This document shows positions 1 to 13,205 of a stretch of 15,450 nucleotides of DNA, piece after piece. The notes beneath the pieces are model-generated. The model was not told where the DNA came from, searched no databases, and was given only the letters and a program-made list of their open reading frames with translations. Made by a program: the position numbers and the translations under genes. Source of the DNA: a virus (Duplodnaviria > Heunggongvirae > Uroviricota > Caudoviricetes). The DNA is taken from the IMG/VR virus record IMGVR_UViG_2713897054_000018, positions 1-15,450 of that record. One strand, given 5' to 3'. The stretch's first letter is position 1, and each line of letters opens with the position of its first letter.

Positions 1-324
1 TAAACTCACAGCAAAGAAAGAAGCAATCCTAATATCCATAAATGCATCTGGACCACTGATTAAGGGAAATAAATAGGTTAAGAAATAATTTGTTATCTCC
101 TTATCTGCTGGAGAGGCGGTAGTTAATTTTTTACTGGTTACAGAATTATATTTAATTGCGTATTTAACAATCAAAACACACAGTAAAAGTATAATTGCAC
201 ACAATGATAAGTAAGCAATCATAAATTTATAGTGTTTTGATATACATGAAAGAAAAGCTAAGGTAAAAAATACCGGAGCAACTGAGCTGGCAGTAAGAAG
301 ATATTTGGCAAGCTTATTTAACAT
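1..324 (-). CDS. Hypothetical integral membrane protein, N-terminal 108 codons only; gene continues beyond the left edge of the window
   Basis: Hand translation of the minus strand from ATG at 324-322 gives MLNKLAKYLLTASSVAPVFFTLAFLSCISKHYKFMIAYLSLCAIILLLCVLIVKYAIKYNSVTSKKLTTASPADKEITNYFLTYLFPLISGPDAFMDIRIASFFAVSL with no stop before position 1. GGAGG lies 7 nt upstream of the ATG (+ strand 331-335 CCTCC). Two or three strongly hydrophobic segments suggest transmembrane helices. AT-rich. No family recognised. Confidence 0.5.
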   Translation of the reverse strand, partial: MLNKLAKYLLTASSVAPVFFTLAFLSCISKHYKFMIAYLSLCAIILLLCVLIVKYAIKYNSVTSKKLTTASPADKEITNYFLTYLFPLISGPDAFMDIRIASFFAVSL

Positions 325-495
325 ATTATCCTCCTTATCTGCCCTGGTGTCTGTATATAAAAACAGTATAACATCAATTTAAGCATCAAAGAAGATAATA
401 AAAATCAATTAAATCATAATGATGCCTGCGTTTTTAAAGTGTGGGCTTTTGGAGGCGGGTAATGTACGCGCGTATTCCCTGGAGATTCCATTTAA

Positions 496-513
496 AAGGC
501 TACGTATGTAGCC
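496..513 (-). terminator. Possible hairpin terminator or RNA structure just downstream of the 103-aa gene
   Basis: Perfect inverted repeat AGGCTAC-GTAT-GTAGCCT (7-bp stem, 4-nt loop) starting 9 nt after the stop of the 522..833 ORF. The trailing sequence on the minus strand (TTTAAAT) is only weakly U-rich. Confidence 0.25.
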
Positions 514-521
514 TCATGTAT

Positions 522-833
522 TTAAGAGTACTGGCCCCAATCTCTGGCAATAAACCAGTTTGGCGTCCAGCTAACAAACTCTTGCGGATGAAAGTTTTGA
601 GGGATTACAACTAGAGATACAATCGCTTCAGGTTGCAAACTGAGAACATGACTTTTTTTATCGCTTTCGTAATCCCAAAAATGGAATCTGTCACTTTTAT
701 CATGAGCTCTACGACTAGGACCGAAGTCCATAGGCGCAGTTAATCTTGTGATTGTCGCGTTATCTTCTTTTGAATAAAAAGTTAGCTGAATTTTTAAACA
801 ACTATGAATGGCATCAATGAATTTATCGCGCAT
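522..833 (-). CDS. Hypothetical 103-aa protein in the satellite variable (hotspot) region; function unknown
   Basis: ORF track 522..833 minus. Strong RBS: minus-strand sequence AAGGAG then 6 nt then ATG (+ strand 840-845 CTCCTT). AT-rich codon usage unlike the P4 core. No recognisable catalytic motif by eye. Confidence 0.55.
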   Translation of the reverse strand: MRDKFIDAIHSCLKIQLTFYSKEDNATITRLTAPMDFGPSRRAHDKSDRFHFWDYESDKKSHVLSLQPEAIVSLVVIPQNFHPQEFVSWTPNWFIARDWGQYS

Positions 834-959
834 ACGTTCTCCTTTGTAGTTACTAAATTAATATCCTCTATTGATAGATTATTGTGTGTGATCATTGCGG
901 CATTTAATAAAACGTAATGAGTTCATTGTATTTTATTTATGTTATCAGCCTTGCGCGCA

Positions 960-978
960 GTGCTTTCCCCGCCTCGCC
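960..978. other. cos: cos site: 19-nt cohesive-end sequence of the P2/P4 family
   Basis: Sequence GTGCTTTCCCCGCCTCGCC is the exact reverse complement of the P2/P4 cohesive end as I recall it (GGCGAGGCGGGGAAAGCAC). Position is as expected, about 165 bp beyond the end of psu. Confidence 0.6.
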
Positions 979-1080
979 CGCCCGCTTTGCGGGGCGGTTT
1001 TAATGCAGTTGCACTGACACGCTCAGACCGCGCCGGGAATGGCGCGGTTTGCAGAAAATGAGGCAGGGAAACGCATGCAA

Positions 1081-1112
1081 AGCCATGCACCTTATCGATG
1101 CATGGCTTTTTT
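1081..1112. terminator. Palindromic hairpin plus T-run between cos and psu; likely terminator of the late operon, possibly bidirectional
   Basis: AGCCATGCA-(8 nt)-TGCATGGCT followed by TTTTTT on the + strand. It lies 30 nt downstream of the psu stop on the minus strand. The stem is self-complementary so it can form on either transcript. Confidence 0.4.
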
Positions 1113-1142
1113 CAGTAAAAACGGGCGGATTTTCGGGGAGTT

Positions 1143-1715
1143 TTACACAGACTGATGTGATGCCAGTTGCGCACTTTTACGCGAAAAAATCATGTTCTGC
1201 GCAGGAGTGAATTTTTCACGGCTGTCATCCACCGAAGCAGCGTCAGGCCTGAATCCGATGGTCGTTAAAATGTCGCTATCCTGTGCGGAATAATTAATTT
1301 TTTCTCCCTTCGCAAGCCAGGACAGAAGGGCTTCACGCAGGGCATCTGTGGCCCGCTGTATGGCACAGTTTCGGGCAATGGCCGTCAGCTCACTGTAGCC
1401 CATCAGCTCCGGTGCCAGTGCCGCCGCCAGTGCTGTGCCGTGCTGCTGCATAAAATCATTCAGCCGGTCGCGGATGCTGATGTGCTGAACGGCTTCATGC
1501 GAACGAATATAACGACCGGCGGCCTGATTCACCTGCCATTTTCTGACTTCGATAATATTGCGTAATTCGTCCAGGCGACTGACGTTTCTGCCTTCTCCTG
1601 ACAGAAGCCGCAGGTATTCCTGTTCGGCCGCTGCCAGCTCATTTTTGCGTTGCAGCCATGCTGCTTTGTTATTCTGACAGGTGTCAAAGGCCTGCTGTAA
1701 GGCTGTGCTTTCCAT
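1143..1715 (-). CDS. psu: Psu, polarity suppression protein (Rho antagonist and capsid decoration protein) of P4-type satellites
   Basis: 190-aa ORF, the same length as P4 Psu. The sequence matches my recollection of P4 Psu (MESTALQQAFDTCQNNKAAWLQRKNEL...). It is last in the sid-delta-psu order and next to cos. Confidence 0.9.
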   Translation of the reverse strand: MESTALQQAFDTCQNNKAAWLQRKNELAAAEQEYLRLLSGEGRNVSRLDELRNIIEVRKWQVNQAAGRYIRSHEAVQHISIRDRLNDFMQQHGTALAAALAPELMGYSELTAIARNCAIQRATDALREALLSWLAKGEKINYSAQDSDILTTIGFRPDAASVDDSREKFTPAQNMIFSRKSAQLASHQSV

Positions 1716-1788
1716 CGTTATCTCTTTCTCATCATGCTGAAGAATAAAAATACGGTGTGCGGCGACGGCCGGTGTTAACCGGCAGCCC

Positions 1789-2289
1789 TCATTCCAGACG
1801 CAGCGAATATGATTGTGTTTTTAACCGTACTGGCGGCAGTTCCTGTTTTTCATGCAGGCGTTCTGCCAGTTCGTCCGGCGTGACCGGGCGGACAATGAAG
1901 CGGTTGATGGTCTGAAGCGTTTTAAACACCAGACCACAGCCCGGATCCGTGCACACATAAAAACGCTCGGTGACTTCCTGAGACAGACGCCGCGATGTTC
2001 TTGACAGTGCAAGGCCTTTACATCTCCGACAACAATATCCGGTAACAAGCATTCTTTTCGGGCGTTTCATACTGCCGGAGGCTGACGTCAGTGAATCGCG
2101 GTATCTCTGTTTGCCTGAAATGTATTCCATTCCTGAATCTTTACAGTCAGAGAAAAAGCTTTCACTCGCTTCAAATGTCGCAGAGCAATAAATATTCCGG
2201 CACTGTGCAATCATTATCTTGGTGCCATCGTCCATGAAATGTGCGCGGCGGGTGTGAGCAACATGTCCACACGACGGGCAGTAAATCAT
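1789..2289 (-). CDS. delta: Delta, late-gene transcriptional activator (tandem Ogr-like zinc-finger domains)
   Basis: 166-aa ORF, the same length as P4 Delta. Two Cys4 zinc-finger units are present (CPSCGH...C..C and CRRCKG...C..C). Its start overlaps the sid stop (ATGA at 2286-2289). Confidence 0.9.
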   Translation of the reverse strand: MIYCPSCGHVAHTRRAHFMDDGTKIMIAQCRNIYCSATFEASESFFSDCKDSGMEYISGKQRYRDSLTSASGSMKRPKRMLVTGYCCRRCKGLALSRTSRRLSQEVTERFYVCTDPGCGLVFKTLQTINRFIVRPVTPDELAERLHEKQELPPVRLKTQSYSLRLE

Positions 2290-3020
2290 GACAGCAGTCC
2301 TCTGGCCTTAAGCTCTGCACCCTGCTGGTCTATTTTGTCCTGCCACACCTTGCGCTGTGCCGGTGTGCCTGCCACCTCATAATCCATGTGCGGGAGTGTT
2401 GCCGCTGACAGTCCGGTCAGCCGGAGAACCGGCTCGCCGGTGAGGCTGATTTGCATCTGTTTTATTTTCTGTTCCAGCGATGATTTCACCTGCTGCATGA
2501 CAGCCTTTTCCGCCGCGACGTAGCCCTGATGGCCGGTGGTGTTGGCGAGCGGATTTTCCTGTACCAGGATGCTCAGATGCATTGCCCGGACAAGCGCCTC
2601 ACAGGTTTCATTCAGGGCGTGTTCCAGCTCATGCTCTGCATACAGACTCAGCAGGTGATGATGTGCCTTCCGGTAGGCGGTGGCCGTGCTGTCACACGCC
2701 CCTTTCAGGCGTTCACATTCAAAATTCAGCACCACGGCCAGATTGTCATATTCCTGTACCAGCTCCCGGCGTGCCACGCGCTCAATGTGGCGCTGTTTCA
2801 GCTCGTCGCTCAGGACACCACCGGCTGCACGAAAGGCCGTGCGCCAGTCGTCAGCGTCGTTTCCGTCGGCCTGCGCCAGCGCATTTTTTTCCTGCTCTGC
2901 CCGTTCAATGGCCGTGATGGTCTCATCCATCAGGCGGGCGTTCTCAAGATGAGCGGCTCTGGCCTTTTCCAGTTGTGCCAGCGCGGGTTGCAGATATTCA
3001 GGGATGGTGTTGTCAGACAT
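2286..3020 (-). CDS. sid: Sid, capsid size-determination (external scaffold) protein
   Basis: The ORF track gives 250 aa from a GTG at 3038. The ATG at 3020 has GAGGAG 7 nt upstream and gives 244 aa, the P4 Sid length. It is the first gene of the late operon and is translationally coupled to delta. Confidence 0.85.
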   Translation of the reverse strand: MSDNTIPEYLQPALAQLEKARAAHLENARLMDETITAIERAEQEKNALAQADGNDADDWRTAFRAAGGVLSDELKQRHIERVARRELVQEYDNLAVVLNFECERLKGACDSTATAYRKAHHHLLSLYAEHELEHALNETCEALVRAMHLSILVQENPLANTTGHQGYVAAEKAVMQQVKSSLEQKIKQMQISLTGEPVLRLTGLSAATLPHMDYEVAGTPAQRKVWQDKIDQQGAELKARGLLS

Positions 3021-3092
3021 TTTCCGGCTCCTCGTCACTTCAGGTTAAGAAAATTGTGACGTACACCGGACAACAACACGACGCATTGCAGA

Positions 3093-3110
3093 TGTGCCAG
3101 CCCTGACACA
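3093..3110 (-). promoter_or_regulatory. Candidate Delta/Ogr binding site (TGT-N12-ACA) of the sid late promoter
   Basis: TGT GCCAGCCCTGAC ACA dyad centred about 80 bp upstream of the sid ATG, which is the right distance for a site centred near -55 with a short 5' UTR. A second TGT-N12-ACA at 3055-3072 is too close to sid to serve the same promoter. Confidence 0.45.
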
Positions 3111-3189
3111 GGAGACTCATCCTCAGACCGGCAAGCCAGGAAAAGGTCGCAGGAAAAACCGGCTTACTGTTTGTTTTTTTATATTTTAC

Positions 3190-3293
3190 TGTTCACCTCT
3201 GTTCACCATAAGAAAAAAGATAAGTAATACAGTAAGTTAAATGGTGAACAATCGCAGTAATGACTGTTCACCGTCTGTTCACCACTGTTCACC
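3190..3293. repeat. ori-like cluster of type I iterons (TGTTCACC), the expected binding sites for the alpha protein
   Basis: Exact TGTTCACC at 3190-3197, 3200-3207, 3265-3272, 3276-3283 and 3286-3293, plus an inverted copy GGTGAACA at 3243-3250. Lies between the divergent sid promoter and the leftward-operon promoters. Confidence 0.7.
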
Positions 3294-3452
3294 CGCTCAT
3301 GGACTTTTTGTGCTGTTTACTACTGTTTGTTTTTATTAATTCGCCGGGAATGAATAAGAAGAAACGATTTGTATTTCACTATAAAAATTACGAATTGCTT
3401 TAAGTGGCTTTAAATGACTTTAAGTGGGAATGAACAAAAAACACACAGTCAT

Positions 3453-5624: not shown

Positions 5625-6062
5625 ATGAAAATGAACGTAACCGCCACCGTCAGCCATGCGCTCGGCCACTGGCCGCGTATTCTCCCGGCGCTGGGGATTC
5701 AGGTGCTGAAAAACCGTCATCAGCCCTGTCCGGTCTGTGGCGGGAGTGACCGCTTCCGTTTTGATGACAGGGAGGGGCGCGGCACCTGGTACTGCAATCA
5801 GTGTGGTGCCGGTGACGGCCTGAAACTGGTTGAAAAGGTGTTTGGTGTCTCCCCGTCCGACGCGGCCACAAAGGTGGCTGCCGTGACCGGCAGCCTGCCC
5901 CCGGCTGACCCGGCAGTGACGGCCGCCGCCGGTGCTGAAACAGAAGCCGCCCGGAAGAACGCCGCCGCACTGGCACAAACCCTGATGGCGAAAACCCGTC
6001 CCGGAACCGGTAACGCCTACCTGACCCGCAAGGCTTTCCCGGCCGGGAATGCCGGATGCTGA
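5625..6062 (+). CDS. alpha: Alpha primase-helicase, N-terminal fragment (zinc-binding primase domain), ended by an apparent frameshift
   Basis: 145-aa ORF with AGGAG 9 nt upstream. Contains a CxxC...CxxC zinc motif (CPVCGGSDRFRFDDREGRGTWYCNQCG). It continues in another frame as the 633-aa ORF, and 145 + 633 is about the 777 aa of P4 alpha. Confidence 0.75.
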   Translation: MKMNVTATVSHALGHWPRILPALGIQVLKNRHQPCPVCGGSDRFRFDDREGRGTWYCNQCGAGDGLKLVEKVFGVSPSDAATKVAAVTGSLPPADPAVTAAAGAETEAARKNAAALAQTLMAKTRPGTGNAYLTRKAFPAGNAGC

Positions 6063-7957
6063 CCGGCACACACAGAGCCGGTGGCGTGAGCTGGCGTGCC
6101 GGTGACCTTGTGGTGCCACTGTATGACGACAGCGGCGAACTGGTTAACCTTCAGTTAATCAGTGCTGACGGCCGTAAGCGCACCCTGAAAGGCGGGCAGG
6201 TCAGGGGCACCTGTCACATCCTTGAAGGACAGAATCAGGCCGGAAAACGTCTGTGGATAGCGGAGGGATACGCGACCGCACTTACCGTGCATCACCTGAC
6301 CGGTGAAACGGTGATGGTGGCGCTTTCTTCCGTGAACCTCCTTTCTCTGGCCAGCCTTGCCCGGCAGAAGCATCCGGCCTGTCAGATTGTCCTTGCCGCA
6401 GACCGTGACCTCAGCGGTGACGGCCAGAAAAAAGCCGCCGCAGCCGCAGATGCGTGTGAAGGTGTTGTTGCCCTGCCGCCGGTCTTCGGTGACTGGAATG
6501 ATGCCTTCACGCAGTACGGCGGGGAAGCCACCCGTAAGGCCATTTATGATGCCATCCGGCCACCGGCTGAAAGCCCGTTCGACACCATGAGCGAAGCGGA
6601 GTTTTCCGCCATGAGTACCAGCGAAAAGGCCATGCGTATCTATGAGCATTACGGCGAGGCGCTCGCGGTTGATGCCAACGGCCAGCTTCTGTCCCGTTAT
6701 GAAAATGGTGTCTGGAAGGTGCTGCCACCACAGGACTTTGCCCGGGATGTGGCCGGGCTGTTTCAGCGGCTGCGCGCGCCGTTCTCCTCCGGGAAGGTGG
6801 CCTCCGTGGTGGACACCCTGAAGCTGATTATTCCGCAGCAGGAAGCCCCCTCCCGCCGCCTGATTGGCTTTCGTAACGGCGTGCTCGACACGCAGAACGG
6901 CACGTTCCACCCGCACAGTCCGTCACACTGGATGCGCACCCTGTGCGATGTGGATTTCACCCCGCCGGTGGAAGGGGAAACGCTGGAAACCCACGCCCCC
7001 GCGTTCTGGCGCTGGCTTGACCGTGCCGCCGGTGGCCGTGCGGAAAAACGCGACGTGATTCTGGCCGCACTGTTTATGGTGCTGGCAAACCGCTACGACT
7101 GGCAGCTCTTTCTGGAGGTGACCGGTCCCGGCGGCAGCGGCAAAAGTATCATGGCCGAAATAGCCACCCTGCTGGCCGGGGAGGATAACGCCACGTCGGC
7201 CACCATTGAGACGCTGGAATCCCCGCGTGAACGTGCCGCGTTAACTGGCTTCTCACTGATACGCCTGCCGGACCAGGAAAAATGGAGCGGCGACGGAGCC
7301 GGACTCAAGGCCATCACCGGCGGCGATGCAGTGTCCGTTGACCCGAAATACCGGGATGCGTACTCCACGCACATCCCGGCGGTGATTCTGGCCGTGAACA
7401 ATAACCCGATGCGCTTCACCGACCGCAGCGGCGGCGTGTCACGCCGGCGGGTGATTATTCACTTCCCGGAACAGATAGCCCCGCAGGAGCGCGACCCGCA
7501 GCTTAAGGACAAAATCACCCGCGAGCTGGCGGTCATCGTGCGTCACCTGATGCAGAAGTTCAGCGACCCGATGCTCGCCCGGTCACTGCTTCAGTCCCAG
7601 CAGAACTCAGACGAGGCGCTGAACATCAAACGGGATGCCGACCCGACGTTTGATTTTATCGGCTATCTGGAAACCCTGCCGCAGACCAGCGGCATGTATA
7701 TGGGGAACGCCAGTATCATCCCGCGTAATTACCGTAAATACCTCTATCACGCCTATCTGGCCTACATGGAGGCAAACGGCTACCGGAATGTACTCAGTCT
7801 GAAAATGTTCGGGCTGGGGCTGCCGGTGATGCTGAAGGAATACGGACTGAATTACGAGAAGCGCCATACCAAACAGGGGATACAGACCAACCTGACGCTG
7901 AAAGAGGAAAGCTACGGCGACTGGCTGCCAAAATGTGACGACCCTGCAACAGCCTGA
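6056..7957 (+). CDS. alpha: Alpha primase-helicase, C-terminal part (TOPRIM-like primase core plus helicase with Walker A GPGGSGKS)
   Basis: 633-aa ORF. Its frame is open back to 6014 and overlaps the N-terminal fragment. Walker A motif VTGPGGSGKS is present. It is followed directly by the crr iteron repeats. Confidence 0.8.
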   Translation: MLTGTHRAGGVSWRAGDLVVPLYDDSGELVNLQLISADGRKRTLKGGQVRGTCHILEGQNQAGKRLWIAEGYATALTVHHLTGETVMVALSSVNLLSLASLARQKHPACQIVLAADRDLSGDGQKKAAAAADACEGVVALPPVFGDWNDAFTQYGGEATRKAIYDAIRPPAESPFDTMSEAEFSAMSTSEKAMRIYEHYGEALAVDANGQLLSRYENGVWKVLPPQDFARDVAGLFQRLRAPFSSGKVASVVDTLKLIIPQQEAPSRRLIGFRNGVLDTQNGTFHPHSPSHWMRTLCDVDFTPPVEGETLETHAPAFWRWLDRAAGGRAEKRDVILAALFMVLANRYDWQLFLEVTGPGGSGKSIMAEIATLLAGEDNATSATIETLESPRERAALTGFSLIRLPDQEKWSGDGAGLKAITGGDAVSVDPKYRDAYSTHIPAVILAVNNNPMRFTDRSGGVSRRRVIIHFPEQIAPQERDPQLKDKITRELAVIVRHLMQKFSDPMLARSLLQSQQNSDEALNIKRDADPTFDFIGYLETLPQTSGMYMGNASIIPRNYRKYLYHAYLAYMEANGYRNVLSLKMFGLGLPVMLKEYGLNYEKRHTKQGIQTNLTLKEESYGDWLPKCDDPATA

Positions 7958-8008
7958 CCCACCTGACCGGCATCTGCCGGTCTTTTTTTTATCCCGACAT
8001 CCCCCGAA

Positions 8009-8275
8009 GGTGAACAATCCACTGTTCACCCTTCACCGTATATTCACCCGTTATCACACTGAAATTAAAAGAGAAAAACGAAAGGTGAACAGTGTAATCA
8101 AATCAAAAAAACTTTTTTTCTCCCTGTGTGATTTCAGTACGGGGGATTAATCACCGGTATGAGTCACACCGGCAGAATGCCGGAGGTGAAGAATCGAATG
8201 TTCACCCTTCACCCATTATTCACCACCTATCACTCTGAAATAAAAGGAGAAAAAAGAAAGGTGAACAGTGTGAAC
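8009..8275. repeat. crr-like cis replication region: two direct repeats of about 85-120 bp, each carrying TGTTCACC iterons
   Basis: Repeat unit 1 at about 8020-8105 and unit 2 at about 8194-8280 (CCACTGTTCACCCTTCACCG...GAAAGGTGAACAGTG in both). Exact octamers at 8009-8016 and 8083-8090 (both inverted), 8023-8030, 8199-8206 and 8259-8266 (inverted), plus degenerate copies. About 4.8 kb from the ori-like cluster. Confidence 0.7.
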
Positions 8276-8319
8276 AGTTCTTTCGAAAAAAAATTTTTTA
8301 TGTGGATAAAAGATGCACT

Positions 8320-8346
8320 GGTTTGGATCCGAGCTACGGATCCAAA
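8320..8346. repeat. Perfect 11-bp inverted repeat with 5-nt loop (GTTTGGATCCG agcta CGGATCCAAAC)
   Basis: Read directly from the sequence. It sits in the AT-rich stretch between crr and the att-like core. It could be a protein binding site or an RNA hairpin. Confidence 0.4.
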
Positions 8347-8492
8347 CTTACTGATTAAAAATGATTTAACTTTCCGATTTATTGATGGGCTGAAAATAGA
8401 TTGGTCAGAAAAACAGTGGGGGCACAAAAGGGGGCATATTTCATTGTTGTATTTTATTATTTGTTTTTTATCATTAACTTATTTTGATGTTT

Positions 8493-8513
8493 GAGTCCGG
8501 CCTTCGCACCACA
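8493..8513 (+). other. att-like core: fragment resembling the 3' end of a tRNA-Leu (leuX-like) gene; probable right boundary of the satellite
   Basis: GAGTCCGGCCTTCGCACCA resembles the T-arm and acceptor 3' end of E. coli leuX as I recall it (GAGTCCGGCCTTCGGCACCA), differing by one base. There is no intact T-stem or anticodon arm upstream, so it is a fragment. A strong terminator follows, and composition changes on both sides. Confidence 0.45.
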
Positions 8514-8526
8514 CCGTATGCAAATC

Positions 8527-8551
8527 GAGCCGCTCAAGAGCGGCTTTTTTT
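8527..8551 (+). terminator. Rho-independent terminator (probably the original tRNA terminator)
   Basis: AGCCGCTC-AA-GAGCGGCT perfect hairpin followed by a run of 7 T. Confidence 0.6.
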
Positions 8552-8735
8552 GTGTCTGAAATCCGTTAGTTACCTATCTTTCTCGCTATTTTAACTCTCT
8601 CAGGGCTAACCAATTCCAACCCATCGCAAACGAAAAATGTTGGTACAGGCGTTGGTATTATCGGTTCGATATTAATTTGTATTAGCTCAGTCCTGATCTG
8701 ACAGCTATCTGCCAGATCAGGTTCGGATTAATACA

Positions 8736-11700
8736 TTATATCTGCCCGCCTACACCTTTAAACTTCTCAATAAACGCGACGATCTTCTGGAAAACCGTCT
8801 GTTTTTTCGTCTTATATTGCGGATTTAACGGACTGAGTTTTGGCAATGTCTCGTTTAATTCCGTGCCATTTTCGGTGGCGTATTCGCGTTTTAAAGACGT
8901 GCGAATATAGCGTTTCGCCGCCTCTTCATTGAGATTTTCTTCTTTGATCAAGGCTTCTGCTTCACGTTGCTGTTCGCGTTGAGCAAAGGTAAAAAACGCG
9001 TCAATGATGCTGGCTTTATCCGGCAAATCATCCAGGTTCGTTTGCTGAATAAAATCGACCACCAGACCTTCTTTGGCACGGTTCCCAAGGCTTGAACGAA
9101 TTAAGCGTTTGACCTCTTCGGTCATTTCGCCCTTACCTTTGTTTTGTCTGTTGTGTTCGAAAATCAGTCCAAGGATATAATCCAGGTTTATTTCCTGAGA
9201 CTTCAGCAAATCGATTTCAAAAACCACGTCATCCCAGTCAGTAGTTAACTTTTCTTTTTTGCCAGCCTCTTTCTCGCGGCGCTGCCAGTCACGAATATCG
9301 TTATAGGCAGAACGATAATCCTGAATCTTGCGTTCAGCAGGGAGACGAATCGTTTGTAATTCAGCGAACTTTTCATCATCCACATAATGTTCTTCTTTGA
9401 ATTTTTCTACCGCAACAGGATCGCTAAGATCGATTTGTTGCAGGGCTTTCAGCGTGGCAAATTCATCATAGTTTTGCAGGATGTTCTCGGCACGCAGGTA
9501 TTCACCAAACAGTTTAACGAAGTCTTTCTTCTCTTTTTCACTTTCAATACTGGCAGGGTCAGGGAACCGTTGTTCCAGTTCTGAAACTACTGCCATAAAG
9601 CCGCGTTTAGCTTCACCAGTGGCAGCATCAGTAAAGCCTTCCATATACTCTGCATAACTCTTTTCTAACACTACATTTTTGGTATTTTTATCACCAAACA
9701 GCGTTATGGCATCAATGGTTGAGCGTTCCAGATCCCGGAAAGTGACGATGTTACCGAAGGTTTTAGTGGCGTTATAAATGCGGTTGGTGCGGGAGAATGC
9801 CTGCATCAGGCCGTGAAAACGCAAGTTTTTATCGACGAATAGCGTGTTCAATGTTGGAGCGTCGAAGCCGGTTAAAAACATCCCAACGACAATTAACAGA
9901 TCGATATCCTGATTTTTAACCCGTTGGGCTAAATCACGATAGTAGTTCTGAAAACCGTTACTGTCGGTGCTGAAGTTAGTTTTAAAATAGCTGTTATACT
10001 CACGAATTGCAGCGTCAAGAAACTCTTTAGCACTGCTGTCCATTGCGCTGGTATCAAAAGTTTCATCGGAAATTTCACCAATGGCATTTTGTTCTTCATT
10101 GGCGGCAAAGGAGAAGATTGTCGCAACACGCAGCGGTTTATAGGTAGCCGATTTATTAGCTGCTTCCTCTTGTAACCGTTTAAACGTCGCGTAATAGGCT
10201 TTCGCGGCATCCACGCTACTCACTGCCAGCATGGCATTAAAGCCTTTGGAACCTGGGAAAGTACGGTGGGTCTTCTGGCGGAAGTTATTCAGAATATATT
10301 GCGTAATTTCCTGTATACGCATGGGATGAAGAAACGCCTGCTGATTTTCAGCCGCACTCAGTTTTTTCTCGTCGGTTTCTGTCTCTAAAGACTTAAACTG
10401 TGGCCGCACATCGTTGTAGTCCACCTTGAATTTAAGCACTTTTTCATCTCGAATCGCATCGGTAATAACATATGAATGCAATTCACGACCAAATACACTG
10501 GCGGTCGTTTCTGAACCTAAAGCGTTTTCCGGGAAAATAGGGGTACCGGTAAAACCAAACTGATAATAGCGTTTGAATTTCTTCTTCAGGTTTTTCTGCG
10601 CTTCTCCAAACTGGCTGCGGTGGCATTCATCAAATATAAACACCACTTGCTGATTGTATACAGGCAGGTCGCTTTCTGCTTTCATCAGGTTATTAAGTTT
10701 CTGAATAGTGGTGACGATAATTTTGTTATCGTCCTTATCCAGATTTCGTTTAAGACCTGCTGTATTTTCCGAGCCGTTAACACTATCTGGCGAAAAACGC
10801 TGATATTCCTTCATGGTCTGGTAATCGAGATCTTTCCTGTCGACCACAAAGAAAACTTTATCAATAAAGTCCAGTTCTGTTGCCAGACGTGCGGCTTTAA
10901 AGCTGGTCAGTGTTTTACCAGAACCGGTTGTGTGCCAGATAAAGCCACCGCTTTCGGGGGTAGACCAGTTTTTCGCTTTATAGGAGCTGTTGATTTTCCA
11001 TAAGATACGCTCAGTGGCGGCAATCTGGTACGGTCGCATCACTAGTAGCGTTTGGCTAATATCGAACACGCTGTAGTTCACTAAGACATTAAGCAGAGTA
11101 TGTTTCTGGAAAAAGGTAGCGGTAAAGTCTTTGAGGTCTTTAATCAGCGTGTTGTCTGATTTCGCCCAGTTCATGGTGAAGTCAAAACTGTTTTTATCGC
11201 GCTTTGTGGTGTTGGCAAAGTAACGGGTATCGGTGCCGTTAGAAATGACAAACAGTTGCAGATACTTAAACAGGGAATTTTCGCTGTTAAAACTCTCTTT
11301 ACTGTAACGATGTATCTGGTTGAAAGCCTCACGAATCGCCACGCCGCGCTTTTTCAGTTCGATTTGTACCAGTGGTAAGCCATTAACCAGGATCGTGACG
11401 TCATAACGGTTAGCATGAGAACCCGCCTGTTCAAACTGCTGGATAATCTGCACCTTATTGCGCATGAGATTCTTTTTATCTATCAAATAGATGTTCTCAA
11501 GACGCTCGTCATCAAAAATAAAGTCGCAAATATAGTCGATATGGATTTTACGGGTCTTATCCAGAATGCCATCACTCGGGTTGTCCAGATATTGCTCCGT
11601 GAAACGCCGCCACTCGCTGTCATTAAATACCACACCATTGAGGCTCTGAAGCTGTTCCCGAACATTGGACAGCATCGCCAACTGTGATTTTACCGAAATA

Positions 11701-11973: not shown

Positions 11974-13205
11974 TTAATTACTGACAGTTTCAGGTTTCGG
12001 GAAACTGAACAGTAAATCACGATAGTACTCGTATTGTTTCTGGCGCAACTCGATTTCACGCGGAAGGCCTTCGGTGATGGAGTTTGTCAGGGTGTCGAAT
12101 TTATCGAGAATAGATACTATACGTTCCTGTATCTCCATAGAAGGGACTGGAATTAATATCTTAGATAAATTATCAGCATTTACACGTCGAACTTTTGCGC
12201 CAGTAATATACTGTCTTTTTTGATTTTGGAATTGTTCTGTTTGAAAAAAATATGAGACATACTTAGGGTTTAAATTATGTTTGTAAATACAGGCATCACT
12301 GCTTACTGCTATATCTTCACTGCCTAACCATGCAACAGCTTTACATACATCCTCATCATTCTCACTAGTAGTTGCGATAATCAAATCTCCCTTTTGAGCT
12401 TCTTGCATTTTTTTGCAAGTGCGGTTGAAATATATGTTTTTGTTTTTTCTGTATATGTTCCGTAATACGTATAGATTTGACCATAGTGTATGCACCCTAC
12501 ACCTGCATCTATAAAGTCTTTTTTCTGAAAAGTACCACCCCGGATAAACTCGCCAATATCTTTTTGCCCCATAGGTAAATGTGGAACATCTTCGGTATTA
12601 AAACTAAACAACTGGTCGCGATAGTAGTTGTACTGTTTTTTACGCATGTTAAGCTCAGCGGTAAGCTCAGCGGTAAGTGCAGTAAACTTATCCAGAATCC
12701 GAACAATTTCAGACTGGATGGCAAGGGATTTCTCCGGATTATCCGGGCAGGGGATGGGGACTAACCTTTTTTCAATTGTAGTTTTGCTGATGTGCATCAT
12801 AGTAGAACCAGTGCTATGTGCATCTTTAAGTGCTTTAGTATCCCATTGTAACAAGTAATATAGAAACTGTTTACAAATAAGATTCGAATCTGGAACCACT
12901 TTCCATATGTGATAATGGTAAATAGATTTACCCCCATGCCAAATTCTTGGACCAAATGATGCGGACCAAGCATATAAAAGGTCACCGTTATCACAATACT
13001 TGTCTTGATCTAATTCTAAATCTGAGTAATACCAATTTTGGTTAGTAAAAAAATTACCGACTCTTAATACTGGATATTTGCCTTTGGAAAGCAGTTCTTC
13101 TTGCTTATATGCTCTCCCGTTTATTAAACGACAAACTTTAGCCAATGGCAACCACTCAACTTCAACCCCATCCAGCAATTTTTCCAGATAACTTAACTCG
13201 CTCAT
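11974..13205 (-). pseudogene. hsdS: Type I specificity subunit (HsdS), type IC family with two TAEL repeats; reading frame broken into 274- and 173-codon ORFs
   Basis: The N-terminal ORF (12381..13205) begins [21 protein letters not shown] and carries the central conserved region with LTAELTAEL. The C-terminal ORF (11974..12495) ends in the conserved ...LPREIELRQKQYEYYRDLLFSFPKPETVSN. The two overlap in different frames at a homopolymer tract (+ strand T7 at 12409-12415). The start overlaps the hsdM stop. Confidence 0.75.

Follow-up and report, generated by a model that had tools for sequence, protein, structure and literature searches.

The first 950 positions of the window (our name for the entire 15,450-nucleotide stretch of viral DNA analysed here) very probably form the cos-proximal part of the hotspot for defence genes in a tRNA-Leu-integrated P4-like satellite, carrying a WYL-Kiwa cassette. 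This cargo is already known, as a published defence module in a known hotspot, and its identification here is a rediscovery without novelty. A modest lead is provided by the first gene of the cassette, which encodes a stand-alone WYL domain, and by the partnership of its family with OLD proteins.

Windowed GC content is 0.30–0.43 across positions 1–900 versus 0.49–0.58 across 900–3000, and the low-GC variable segment, 1–950, lies immediately to the left of the P4 cos site. The P4 cos-proximal conserved stretch occupies 951–978 and includes the cos core GTGCTTTCCCCGCCTCGCC at 960–978, as seen from the comparison with P4 and with the B185 cloned sequences (…GGCGAGGCGGGGAAAGCAC…). We take GTGCTTTCCCCGCCTCGCC at 960–978 to be the 19-nt cohesive end of P4. 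Similarity to other P4 elements and hotspots stops at about 950 when published cloned sequences are compared, which makes 834–950 (minus strand) the cos-proximal end of the cargo. These positions lie upstream of the WYL gene and contain its ribosome-binding site, AAGGAG, at 839–844. To the right of cos follows psu (1143–1715, minus strand; 'phage polarity suppression protein' in the RefSeq annotation of NZ_CP075663), a conserved gene that marks the right border of the hotspot, and then delta, sid and alpha.

The left border is outside the window and was read in near-identical genomes. The chromosome of E. coli STEC2017-197 (NZ_CP075663) matches the window at 99.98% over 10,150 bp, the differences being one mismatch and one single-base gap, and the gene order there is tRNA-Leu, int, KwaB, KwaA, the gene for the 103-aa protein, psu, delta, sid and alpha. 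The same leftward arrangement of kwaA, kwaB, P4-type integrase and tRNA-Leu is found in about 30 further complete genomes, and in the near-identical genome int and tRNA-Leu are 1.2–2.7 kb to the left of window position 1. Since the leftward extension leads to int and tRNA-Leu, the cargo segment is placed between cos and int, with psu/cos on one side and integrase plus tRNA on the other, which is the layout of the P4-like psu-int defence hotspot. An earlier sequence-only reading of this DNA had proposed such a hypervariable psu-cos-int hotspot and the leftward extension that now confirms it. The features it had listed (the drop in composition, two minus-strand ORFs, their ribosome-binding sites and a hairpin between the genes) are all present in the sequence, the possibility it raised of more genes leftward is borne out by kwaB, which follows kwaA and makes the cargo three genes instead of two, and the view of the cargo as a defence module agrees with the identification of Kiwa genes.

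The same cassette was described by Rousset et al. (2022), who catalogued the P4 psu-int hotspot and listed as system 14 (their Table S1B) a "WYL/DUF4868" module with 93 occurrences. The proteins of system 14 are identical to those that the window encodes, namely the 103-aa protein and the N-terminal part of KwaA, and the accessions in NZ_CP075663 are those of system 14 (WP_001205027, WP_000932801 and WP_000418440). System 14 occupies the same position between psu/cos and int and shows no detectable difference within the part covered by the window, which merely cuts kwaA at codon 108. The suggestion that the cargo is new thus gives way to an identical, published three-protein cassette; a Kiwa hotspot with three CDSs is also described in the Domainator paper. 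Rousset et al. cloned system 14 with its native promoter from E. coli TA280 as pFR79, "WYL-Kiwa", and challenged it with phages, which amounts to part of the experiment suggested in the sequence-only reading. pFR79 is given in their Table S2B under 'additional tested systems', outside the seven validated P4 systems, and WYL-Kiwa was not validated against the panel of eight phages. Because pFR79 stands only among these additional systems, defence by this Kiwa subtype remains putative. By-eye comparison with the sequences in Tables S1B and S2A of the same study revealed no homology of the cargo to Gop, Beta or CII; the cargo proteins match KwaA and the WYL fold rather than those of the gop/beta/cII type.

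Both ORFs in the variable segment are genuine genes. The one truncated by the left edge of the window (1–324, minus strand) represents the first 108 of the 171 codons of kwaA, encoding the membrane subunit of Kiwa, and is preceded by the ribosome-binding site AAGGAGG at 330–336. Its product is strongly hydrophobic with hydrophobic segments clearly visible as hydropathy peaks, in line with the membrane character proposed for it earlier, and the complete protein is described as having four transmembrane helices (4 TM; Rousset et al., 2022). The fragment matches the PADLOC model PDLC00216 with E=1.8e-41 and the full 171-aa protein from NZ_CP075663 does so with E=1.6e-76, while the score against the NCBIfam KwaA equivalog is 32.9 bits, under the cut-off of 100, and sequence comparison with the KwaA chains in the PDB gives E=1.3 only. 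In the near-identical genomes a 297-aa gene, named "Kiwa anti-phage protein KwaB-like" in RefSeq, starts 8 bp after kwaA, outside the window. Its product matches the PADLOC KwaB model with E=6.5e-117 and Pfam PF16162 (DUF4868) with 28.2 bits, above the cut-off of 26.3. A sequence search of the PDB with KwaB gave no match, and a fold search with the AF2 model of a 94%-identical KwaB (pLDDT 80.5) returned only four significant PDB matches, all of them solved structures of KwaB, with alignments spanning its full length (9mrx_D with E=6.3e-07; also 9nyu and 9mtn) at a sequence identity of 11–14%. Profile, fold and gene order therefore all support the assignment of the membrane ORF and the downstream gene as KwaA and KwaB of Kiwa.

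Kiwa was described by Doron et al. (2018) and its mechanism by Zhang, Todeschini et al. (PMC11785009), according to whom a membrane supercomplex assembles from tetramers of KwaA and dimers of KwaB and detects, through KwaA, perturbation of the membrane when a phage enters or conjugation takes place. KwaB (DUF4868) then attaches to the DNA coming in, so that replication stalls and late transcription is blocked; the phage protein Gam antagonises the system. Other Kiwa subtypes are active; the operons assayed in that study came from ECOR8, 12, 49 and D9, and defence was obtained from kwaA-kwaB operons, a WYL gene never being mentioned. The cassette described here has in common with these systems an operon in which a DUF4868 KwaB comes after a multi-TM KwaA, as judged from model and fold matches. 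It differs in the length of KwaA (171 aa versus about 195 aa in the studied Kiwa), in the additional WYL gene upstream and in being a divergent subtype that scores under the NCBIfam equivalog cut-offs. By homology to the other subtypes, Kiwa here would act in the same way, through membrane sensing and DNA binding by KwaB.

The WYL gene and kwaA are separated by a spacer of 197 bp (325–521, minus strand), which contains the kwaA ribosome-binding site. About 100 bp of its AT-rich part are conserved in a 92%-identical variant of the cassette from strain S1. Directly after the WYL stop codon a palindrome at 497–514 can fold into a hairpin with a 7-bp stem (AGGCTAC-gtat-GTAGCCT), the stem being kept in the S1 variant and the loop changed. 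The hairpin is a possible terminator; we do not call it one since the coding-strand T-tract is weak, the tail being TTTAAAT only. Of the earlier suggestion that a hairpin may separate two transcription units, the hairpin itself is confirmed and its role as a terminator is a possible one. A promoter scan of 1–1200 gave four sites versus 3.5±2.0 in shuffled sequence, and at this chance level no promoters were assigned in that region.

The other gene (522–833, minus strand; WP_001205027) encodes the 103-aa protein, and its ribosome-binding site is five nucleotides ahead of the ATG. The protein has homologues in 91 clusters, with 18 invariant residues. Neither Pfam (at E<=1), PADLOC, NCBIfam, PHROGs nor a PDB profile search produced any match for it, so that of the profile and structure searches that had been proposed as a check, profiles identified KwaA (through PADLOC) and failed for the 103-aa protein, whose identity was resolved through structure prediction only. 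The two proteins that the sequence-only reading could not recognise are thus KwaA and a WYL domain. The AlphaFold model of the 103-aa protein, built from an alignment of 38 homologues, has a pLDDT of 94.2 and consists of an N-terminal helix (residues 2–11), a five-stranded barrel and a Trp-rich tail. A helix followed by an Sm-like five-stranded barrel is the fold of the WYL domain, and the model matches solved WYL domains with structural comparison figures of 11.0 for PafBC, 9.9 for BrxR, 9.5 for DriD, 9.3 for CapW and 7.0 for WYL1. Rousset et al. (2022) assign PF13280.8 to this protein; in our search Pfam PF13280 did not match it at E<=1.

Strand beta3 of the family carries the sequence R-F-H-F-W-D-Y, in which R49, H51 and D54 are invariant and W53 and Y55 are conserved in at least 90%, so the motif is aromatic but not literally WYL. 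In more than 90% of WYL proteins the domain is preceded by an HTH, and in the 103-aa protein there is none, only a single helix before the barrel; the WCX domain is absent as well. A conserved Arg pair in the beta4/beta5 loop is used for ligand binding by WYL domains (PMC6789036). Here this loop (Sm-2), joining strands 62–66 and 71–80, reads L-(L/Q)-P-x-Q/A-I with no conserved arginine, and since the Arg pair is absent, ligand binding by the 103-aa protein can only be assumed. The conserved basic residues of the family are found elsewhere, namely R30, R41, R42, R49, H51 and H62. The protein therefore differs from BrxR, CapW, PafBC and DriD, which have the wHTH/WCX or the Arg pair, while it possesses neither wHTH, nor WCX, nor the beta4/beta5 Arg pair. 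It also differs from WYL1, the accessory protein of type VI-D CRISPR-Cas13d, which has 385 residues and additional domains and bears no sequence relationship to the 103-aa family; WYL1 offers a comparison for effector-stimulating activity, which for the 103-aa family is putative only. Without an HTH the 103-aa protein is not a classical WYL transcription factor, and we infer from its genomic distribution, described below, that it is not a core Kiwa subunit either.

The family comprises 404 clusters among 1.84 billion representatives. The best 150 of these 404 clusters are all 63–190 aa long with no extra domain, and accordingly no fusions to HTH or OLD domains are found among them. Hosts include Proteobacteria, Bacteroidota, Cyanobacteria, Firmicutes, Saccharibacteria and archaeal MAGs, and homologues across these phyla are 44–65% identical to the window protein, which implies horizontal transfer under strong constraint. 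In phages the family is missing from all 50,697 records searched, and the viral structural matches of the WYL protein, to small phage WYL proteins, are weak, none reaching E<=0.001.

The neighbourhoods of 36 WYL loci (32 in species-representative genomes and four from homologue look-ups) reveal what the family associates with. The commonest neighbour is an OLD-family protein, roughly 600 aa long, that combines AAA_15 with an OLD-like TOPRIM domain and matches PADLOC 'Old' (best E=3.9e-75); at eight of the 36 loci it is adjacent on the same strand with gaps of 3–54 bp, in either gene order. These pairs, which include Shewanella fodinae (6144–8300 of the locus) and Pyrinomonadaceae (1093–3313 of the locus), involve WYL members scattered across the family tree. 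AAA_13 ATPases are neighbours at two further loci and an SMC_N/AAA_21 ATPase at one, so that a tightly operonic ABC-ATPase partner is present at 11 of the 36 loci; at two loci an OLD-like ATPase is found a few genes off. The other neighbours, too, belong to nuclease or defence functions. The WYL gene sits between a nuclease and a nuclease inhibitor in Acinetobacter (NucA, WYL, NuiA), inside an SbcCD-like operon on an Arcobacter plasmid, beside DUF2971 in a P4-like hotspot of Yersinia, with AbiE and type I restriction-modification genes in a Pantoea island, and next to Mrr_cat and a Schlafen-like protein at other loci. In Pantoea and Photobacterium it is also found alone, with long gaps on both sides, and a minority of homologues have housekeeping surroundings, as in Acinetobacter portensis and in a marine genome where the gene lies between dcd and nrdJ. 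The 302-aa gene downstream of a Pantoea homologue was considered as a hidden KwaB and ruled out by tblastn. E. coli plasmids of 2.8–4.3 kb carry the family gene too, followed by a 237-aa gene. The overall pattern suggests that horizontal transfer has spread the family, whose members sit beside DNA-targeting effectors, most often OLD ATPase-nucleases.

The WYL gene and this Kiwa subtype are separable modules. Within E. coli the WYL gene is present in 32 of 5,426 complete genomes and beside this Kiwa in all 32, one copy being about 8% diverged (the 92% variant). Elsewhere the cassette occurs in decayed form, and of the WYL gene these copies retain only 113 bp from the 3' end. The linkage in E. 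coli could reflect no more than the inheritance of a 1.9-kb cassette as one piece. The nearest relatives of this Kiwa, in Aeromonas (KwaB 60% identical), in a Photorhabdus prophage (59%), in an E. coli mobilisable element (44%) and in a prophage of another host (38%), are all plain kwaA-kwaB pairs, and within 4 kb of them there is no WYL gene. Conversely, none of the examined loci of WYL homologues outside E. coli has this Kiwa nearby.

What is the role of the WYL protein then? The reading we prefer, at what we judge to be slightly less than an even chance, is that of a portable accessory, which would bind a putative nucleic-acid ligand (ssDNA or RNA, by analogy with DriD, CapW, PafBC and WYL1) and modulate the neighbouring effector. 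The ligand would be contacted by the conserved Arg/His/Trp patch formed by R30, R41, R42, R49, H51, W53 and H62. The cassette is transcribed leftward, away from cos, in the order WYL gene, kwaA and, 8 bp further, kwaB, towards int, and the effector modulated would here be Kiwa. As a conventional transcription factor is not possible, such modulation would take place at the protein or RNA level. A broader version, in which the stand-alone WYL family is a portable nucleic-acid-sensing subunit of DNA-targeting effectors and WYL-OLD is an undescribed two-gene system that recombined with Kiwa in P4, is conceivable, and we regard it as doubtful.

The likeliest alternative to this accessory role is a single-gene module that has nothing to do with Kiwa, the cargo then consisting of two unrelated units. 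The strong ribosome-binding site of the WYL gene, the 197-bp spacer and the hairpin before kwaA would all fit such autonomy, as would the solitary copies in Pantoea and Photobacterium, the housekeeping contexts in some taxa and the carriage by small E. coli plasmids. However, the ABC-ATPase operons at 11 of 36 loci suggest that the WYL protein as a rule has a partner to work with, the 237-aa gene follows it on the very small plasmids as well, and P4 elements with more than one system amount to 1% (2026 preprint), so we consider full autonomy rather unlikely. Lower still we place a dedicated regulator of Kiwa expression, acting as BrxR does for BREX and CapW for CBASS, which was the suggestion of Rousset et al. 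(2022), in whose words the protein 'perhaps regulates the system'. The gene is positioned like brxR and capW, directly upstream and co-oriented, both proteins are among the top structural matches, no E. coli copy of the WYL gene, the diverged variant among them, is without this Kiwa beside it, and a lack of defence by the native-promoter clone would be compatible with a repressor. This regulator is nevertheless improbable in our view: the protein lacks an HTH or other DNA-binding domain, the nearest Kiwa relatives do without the WYL gene, the family is Kiwa-free at every locus examined outside E. coli, and in the Kiwa study kwaA-kwaB defends with no WYL mentioned.

The recurrent position beside OLD nucleases, in either gene order, also lends itself to a role in counter-defence or immunity, in which the WYL protein would hold OLD-type nucleases in check and P4 would use it to blunt the Old nucleases of the P2 helper or of rivals. 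P2 Old belongs to the class 1 OLD nucleases, the NucA, WYL, NuiA arrangement of Acinetobacter has the gene flanked by a nuclease and a nuclease inhibitor, and small WYL-only proteins do occur in phages as a structural class. This family itself, however, is absent from the phage records, the viral structural matches are weak, and the toxicity/antidote role is a putative, contextual idea, which makes counter-defence of this kind very unlikely. Finally, the soluble 103-aa protein had been read together with the membrane protein as a candidate two-gene abortive-infection system of a novel kind, as the genes are adjacent, co-oriented, low in GC and located in a defence hotspot. The functional pair is KwaA and KwaB, and not the small protein with the membrane protein: KwaA has its established partner 8 bp downstream, 197 bp and a hairpin lie between it and the WYL gene, the latter is separable and Kiwa-free in other taxa, and it is solely in the enterobacterial P4 cassette that the two families are seen together. 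With the cassette already published, this system is refuted as novel and its chances are negligible.

In the broader version, that of a portable sensing subunit, the WYL protein would gate or tune KwaB, and this might be the reason that no protection by the native cassette was seen in the published screen. The lack of validation leaves three options, namely that the WYL protein gates Kiwa negatively, that the phage panel was mismatched or that this Kiwa subtype is inactive. The comparative result, that the WYL gene is separable and has OLD as its most frequent operonic partner, turns the role of an HTH-less WYL protein into a testable question.

Class 1 OLD genes are described in the literature as single isolated genes, and a literature search found no paper on stand-alone WYL proteins or on WYL-OLD pairs, which is not proof of absence. 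The window itself contains no OLD gene. The OLD neighbours of the 103-aa family resemble class 1 OLD proteins such as P2 Old and Thermus scotoductus OLD in the combination of AAA_15 and TOPRIM, but while the latter are solitary as described, a subset here has a tightly linked WYL partner. If a WYL-OLD system is real, it would extend from Proteobacteria to Firmicutes, Acidobacteria and Armatimonadetes, and the operons suggest that some class 1 OLD nucleases are accompanied by a partner acting as sensor or regulator.

The most recurrent neighbour of the relatives of the window's 103-aa stand-alone WYL-domain protein is an OLD-family ATPase-nuclease of about 600 aa, with AAA_15 and OLD-like TOPRIM domains. 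At eight of the loci compared (positions here and below are those of each locus) the two genes form a tight two-gene operon: L030 (6144-8300), L031 (1239-3458), L035 (3776-6001), L037 (1093-3313), L040 (22-2169), L047 (7884-10151), L049 (7938-10062) and L050 (6029-8297). The hosts span Shewanella, Aminicenantes, Armatimonadetes, Acidobacteria, Actinobacteria and Desulfosporosinus, and either gene can come first. We found no description of this WYL-OLD operon in the literature searched.

Other nucleases and SbcCD-like genes also accompany the family. In Acinetobacter nosocomialis and A. seifertii (L045 and L048, both 7055-8890) the WYL homologue has the gene for a DNA/RNA non-specific endonuclease (Endonuclease_NS) on one side and that for the nuclease inhibitor NuiA on the other, all three on one strand. 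On a 133-kb Arcobacter plasmid (L064, 217-9152) it lies within a run of co-oriented, overlapping genes, in the order SbcD-like, SbcC/MukB-like (1193 aa), WYL, unknown proteins of 707 aa and 73 aa, and DUF2779. In contrast to the defence islands around other homologues, the setting in a marine (TARA) genome is one of nucleotide metabolism, as the WYL gene shares one strand with the two genes that flank it, for dCTP deaminase on one side and a class II ribonucleotide reductase on the other (L013, 5268-9961).

In E. coli, 106-aa homologues (46-50% identical) are carried by three tiny plasmids of 2779 bp (L055), 4263 bp (L056) and 2885 bp (L057). These hold hardly any cargo besides the WYL gene and that for a conserved 237-aa protein, which comes next after it in two of the three and has no Pfam match. 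Decayed copies of the whole int-kwaB-kwaA-WYL cassette, which carries the Kiwa genes kwaA and kwaB, are found on another island (L016, 5001-5113; L017, 4001-5677; L018, 3997-5597), near subAB in strain 48 and with ArdC and methylase genes nearby in other strains. There int is frameshifted, KwaB is truncated, and nothing but the final 25 codons of the WYL gene is left.

The satellite's own alpha primase-helicase gene (window 5625-7957) is interrupted. Compared with the otherwise near-identical copy in the E. coli STEC2017-197 chromosome, the window lacks 1 bp around 6031, which breaks the 777-aa reading frame of alpha into one ORF of 145 aa and another of 633 aa; either replication of the satellite is truly inactivated or the missing base is an assembly indel. 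The window has a second deletion of a single base in the adjacent type I R-M system, where hsdS (11974-13205) is divided into two ORFs that overlap, one of 274 aa and the other of 173 aa. Close relatives all have 1 bp more across this stretch and an intact S subunit.

Just past alpha, a 97-nt direct repeat (8004-8100 and 8180-8276; 84% identity, 176 bp separation) overlaps a 111-aa ORF (8159-8494) annotated in RefSeq as an integrase fragment, and beyond them lies a complete hsdR-hsdS-hsdM set. Together, these features suggest that the tRNA-Leu site holds tandem element ends plus a defence island.
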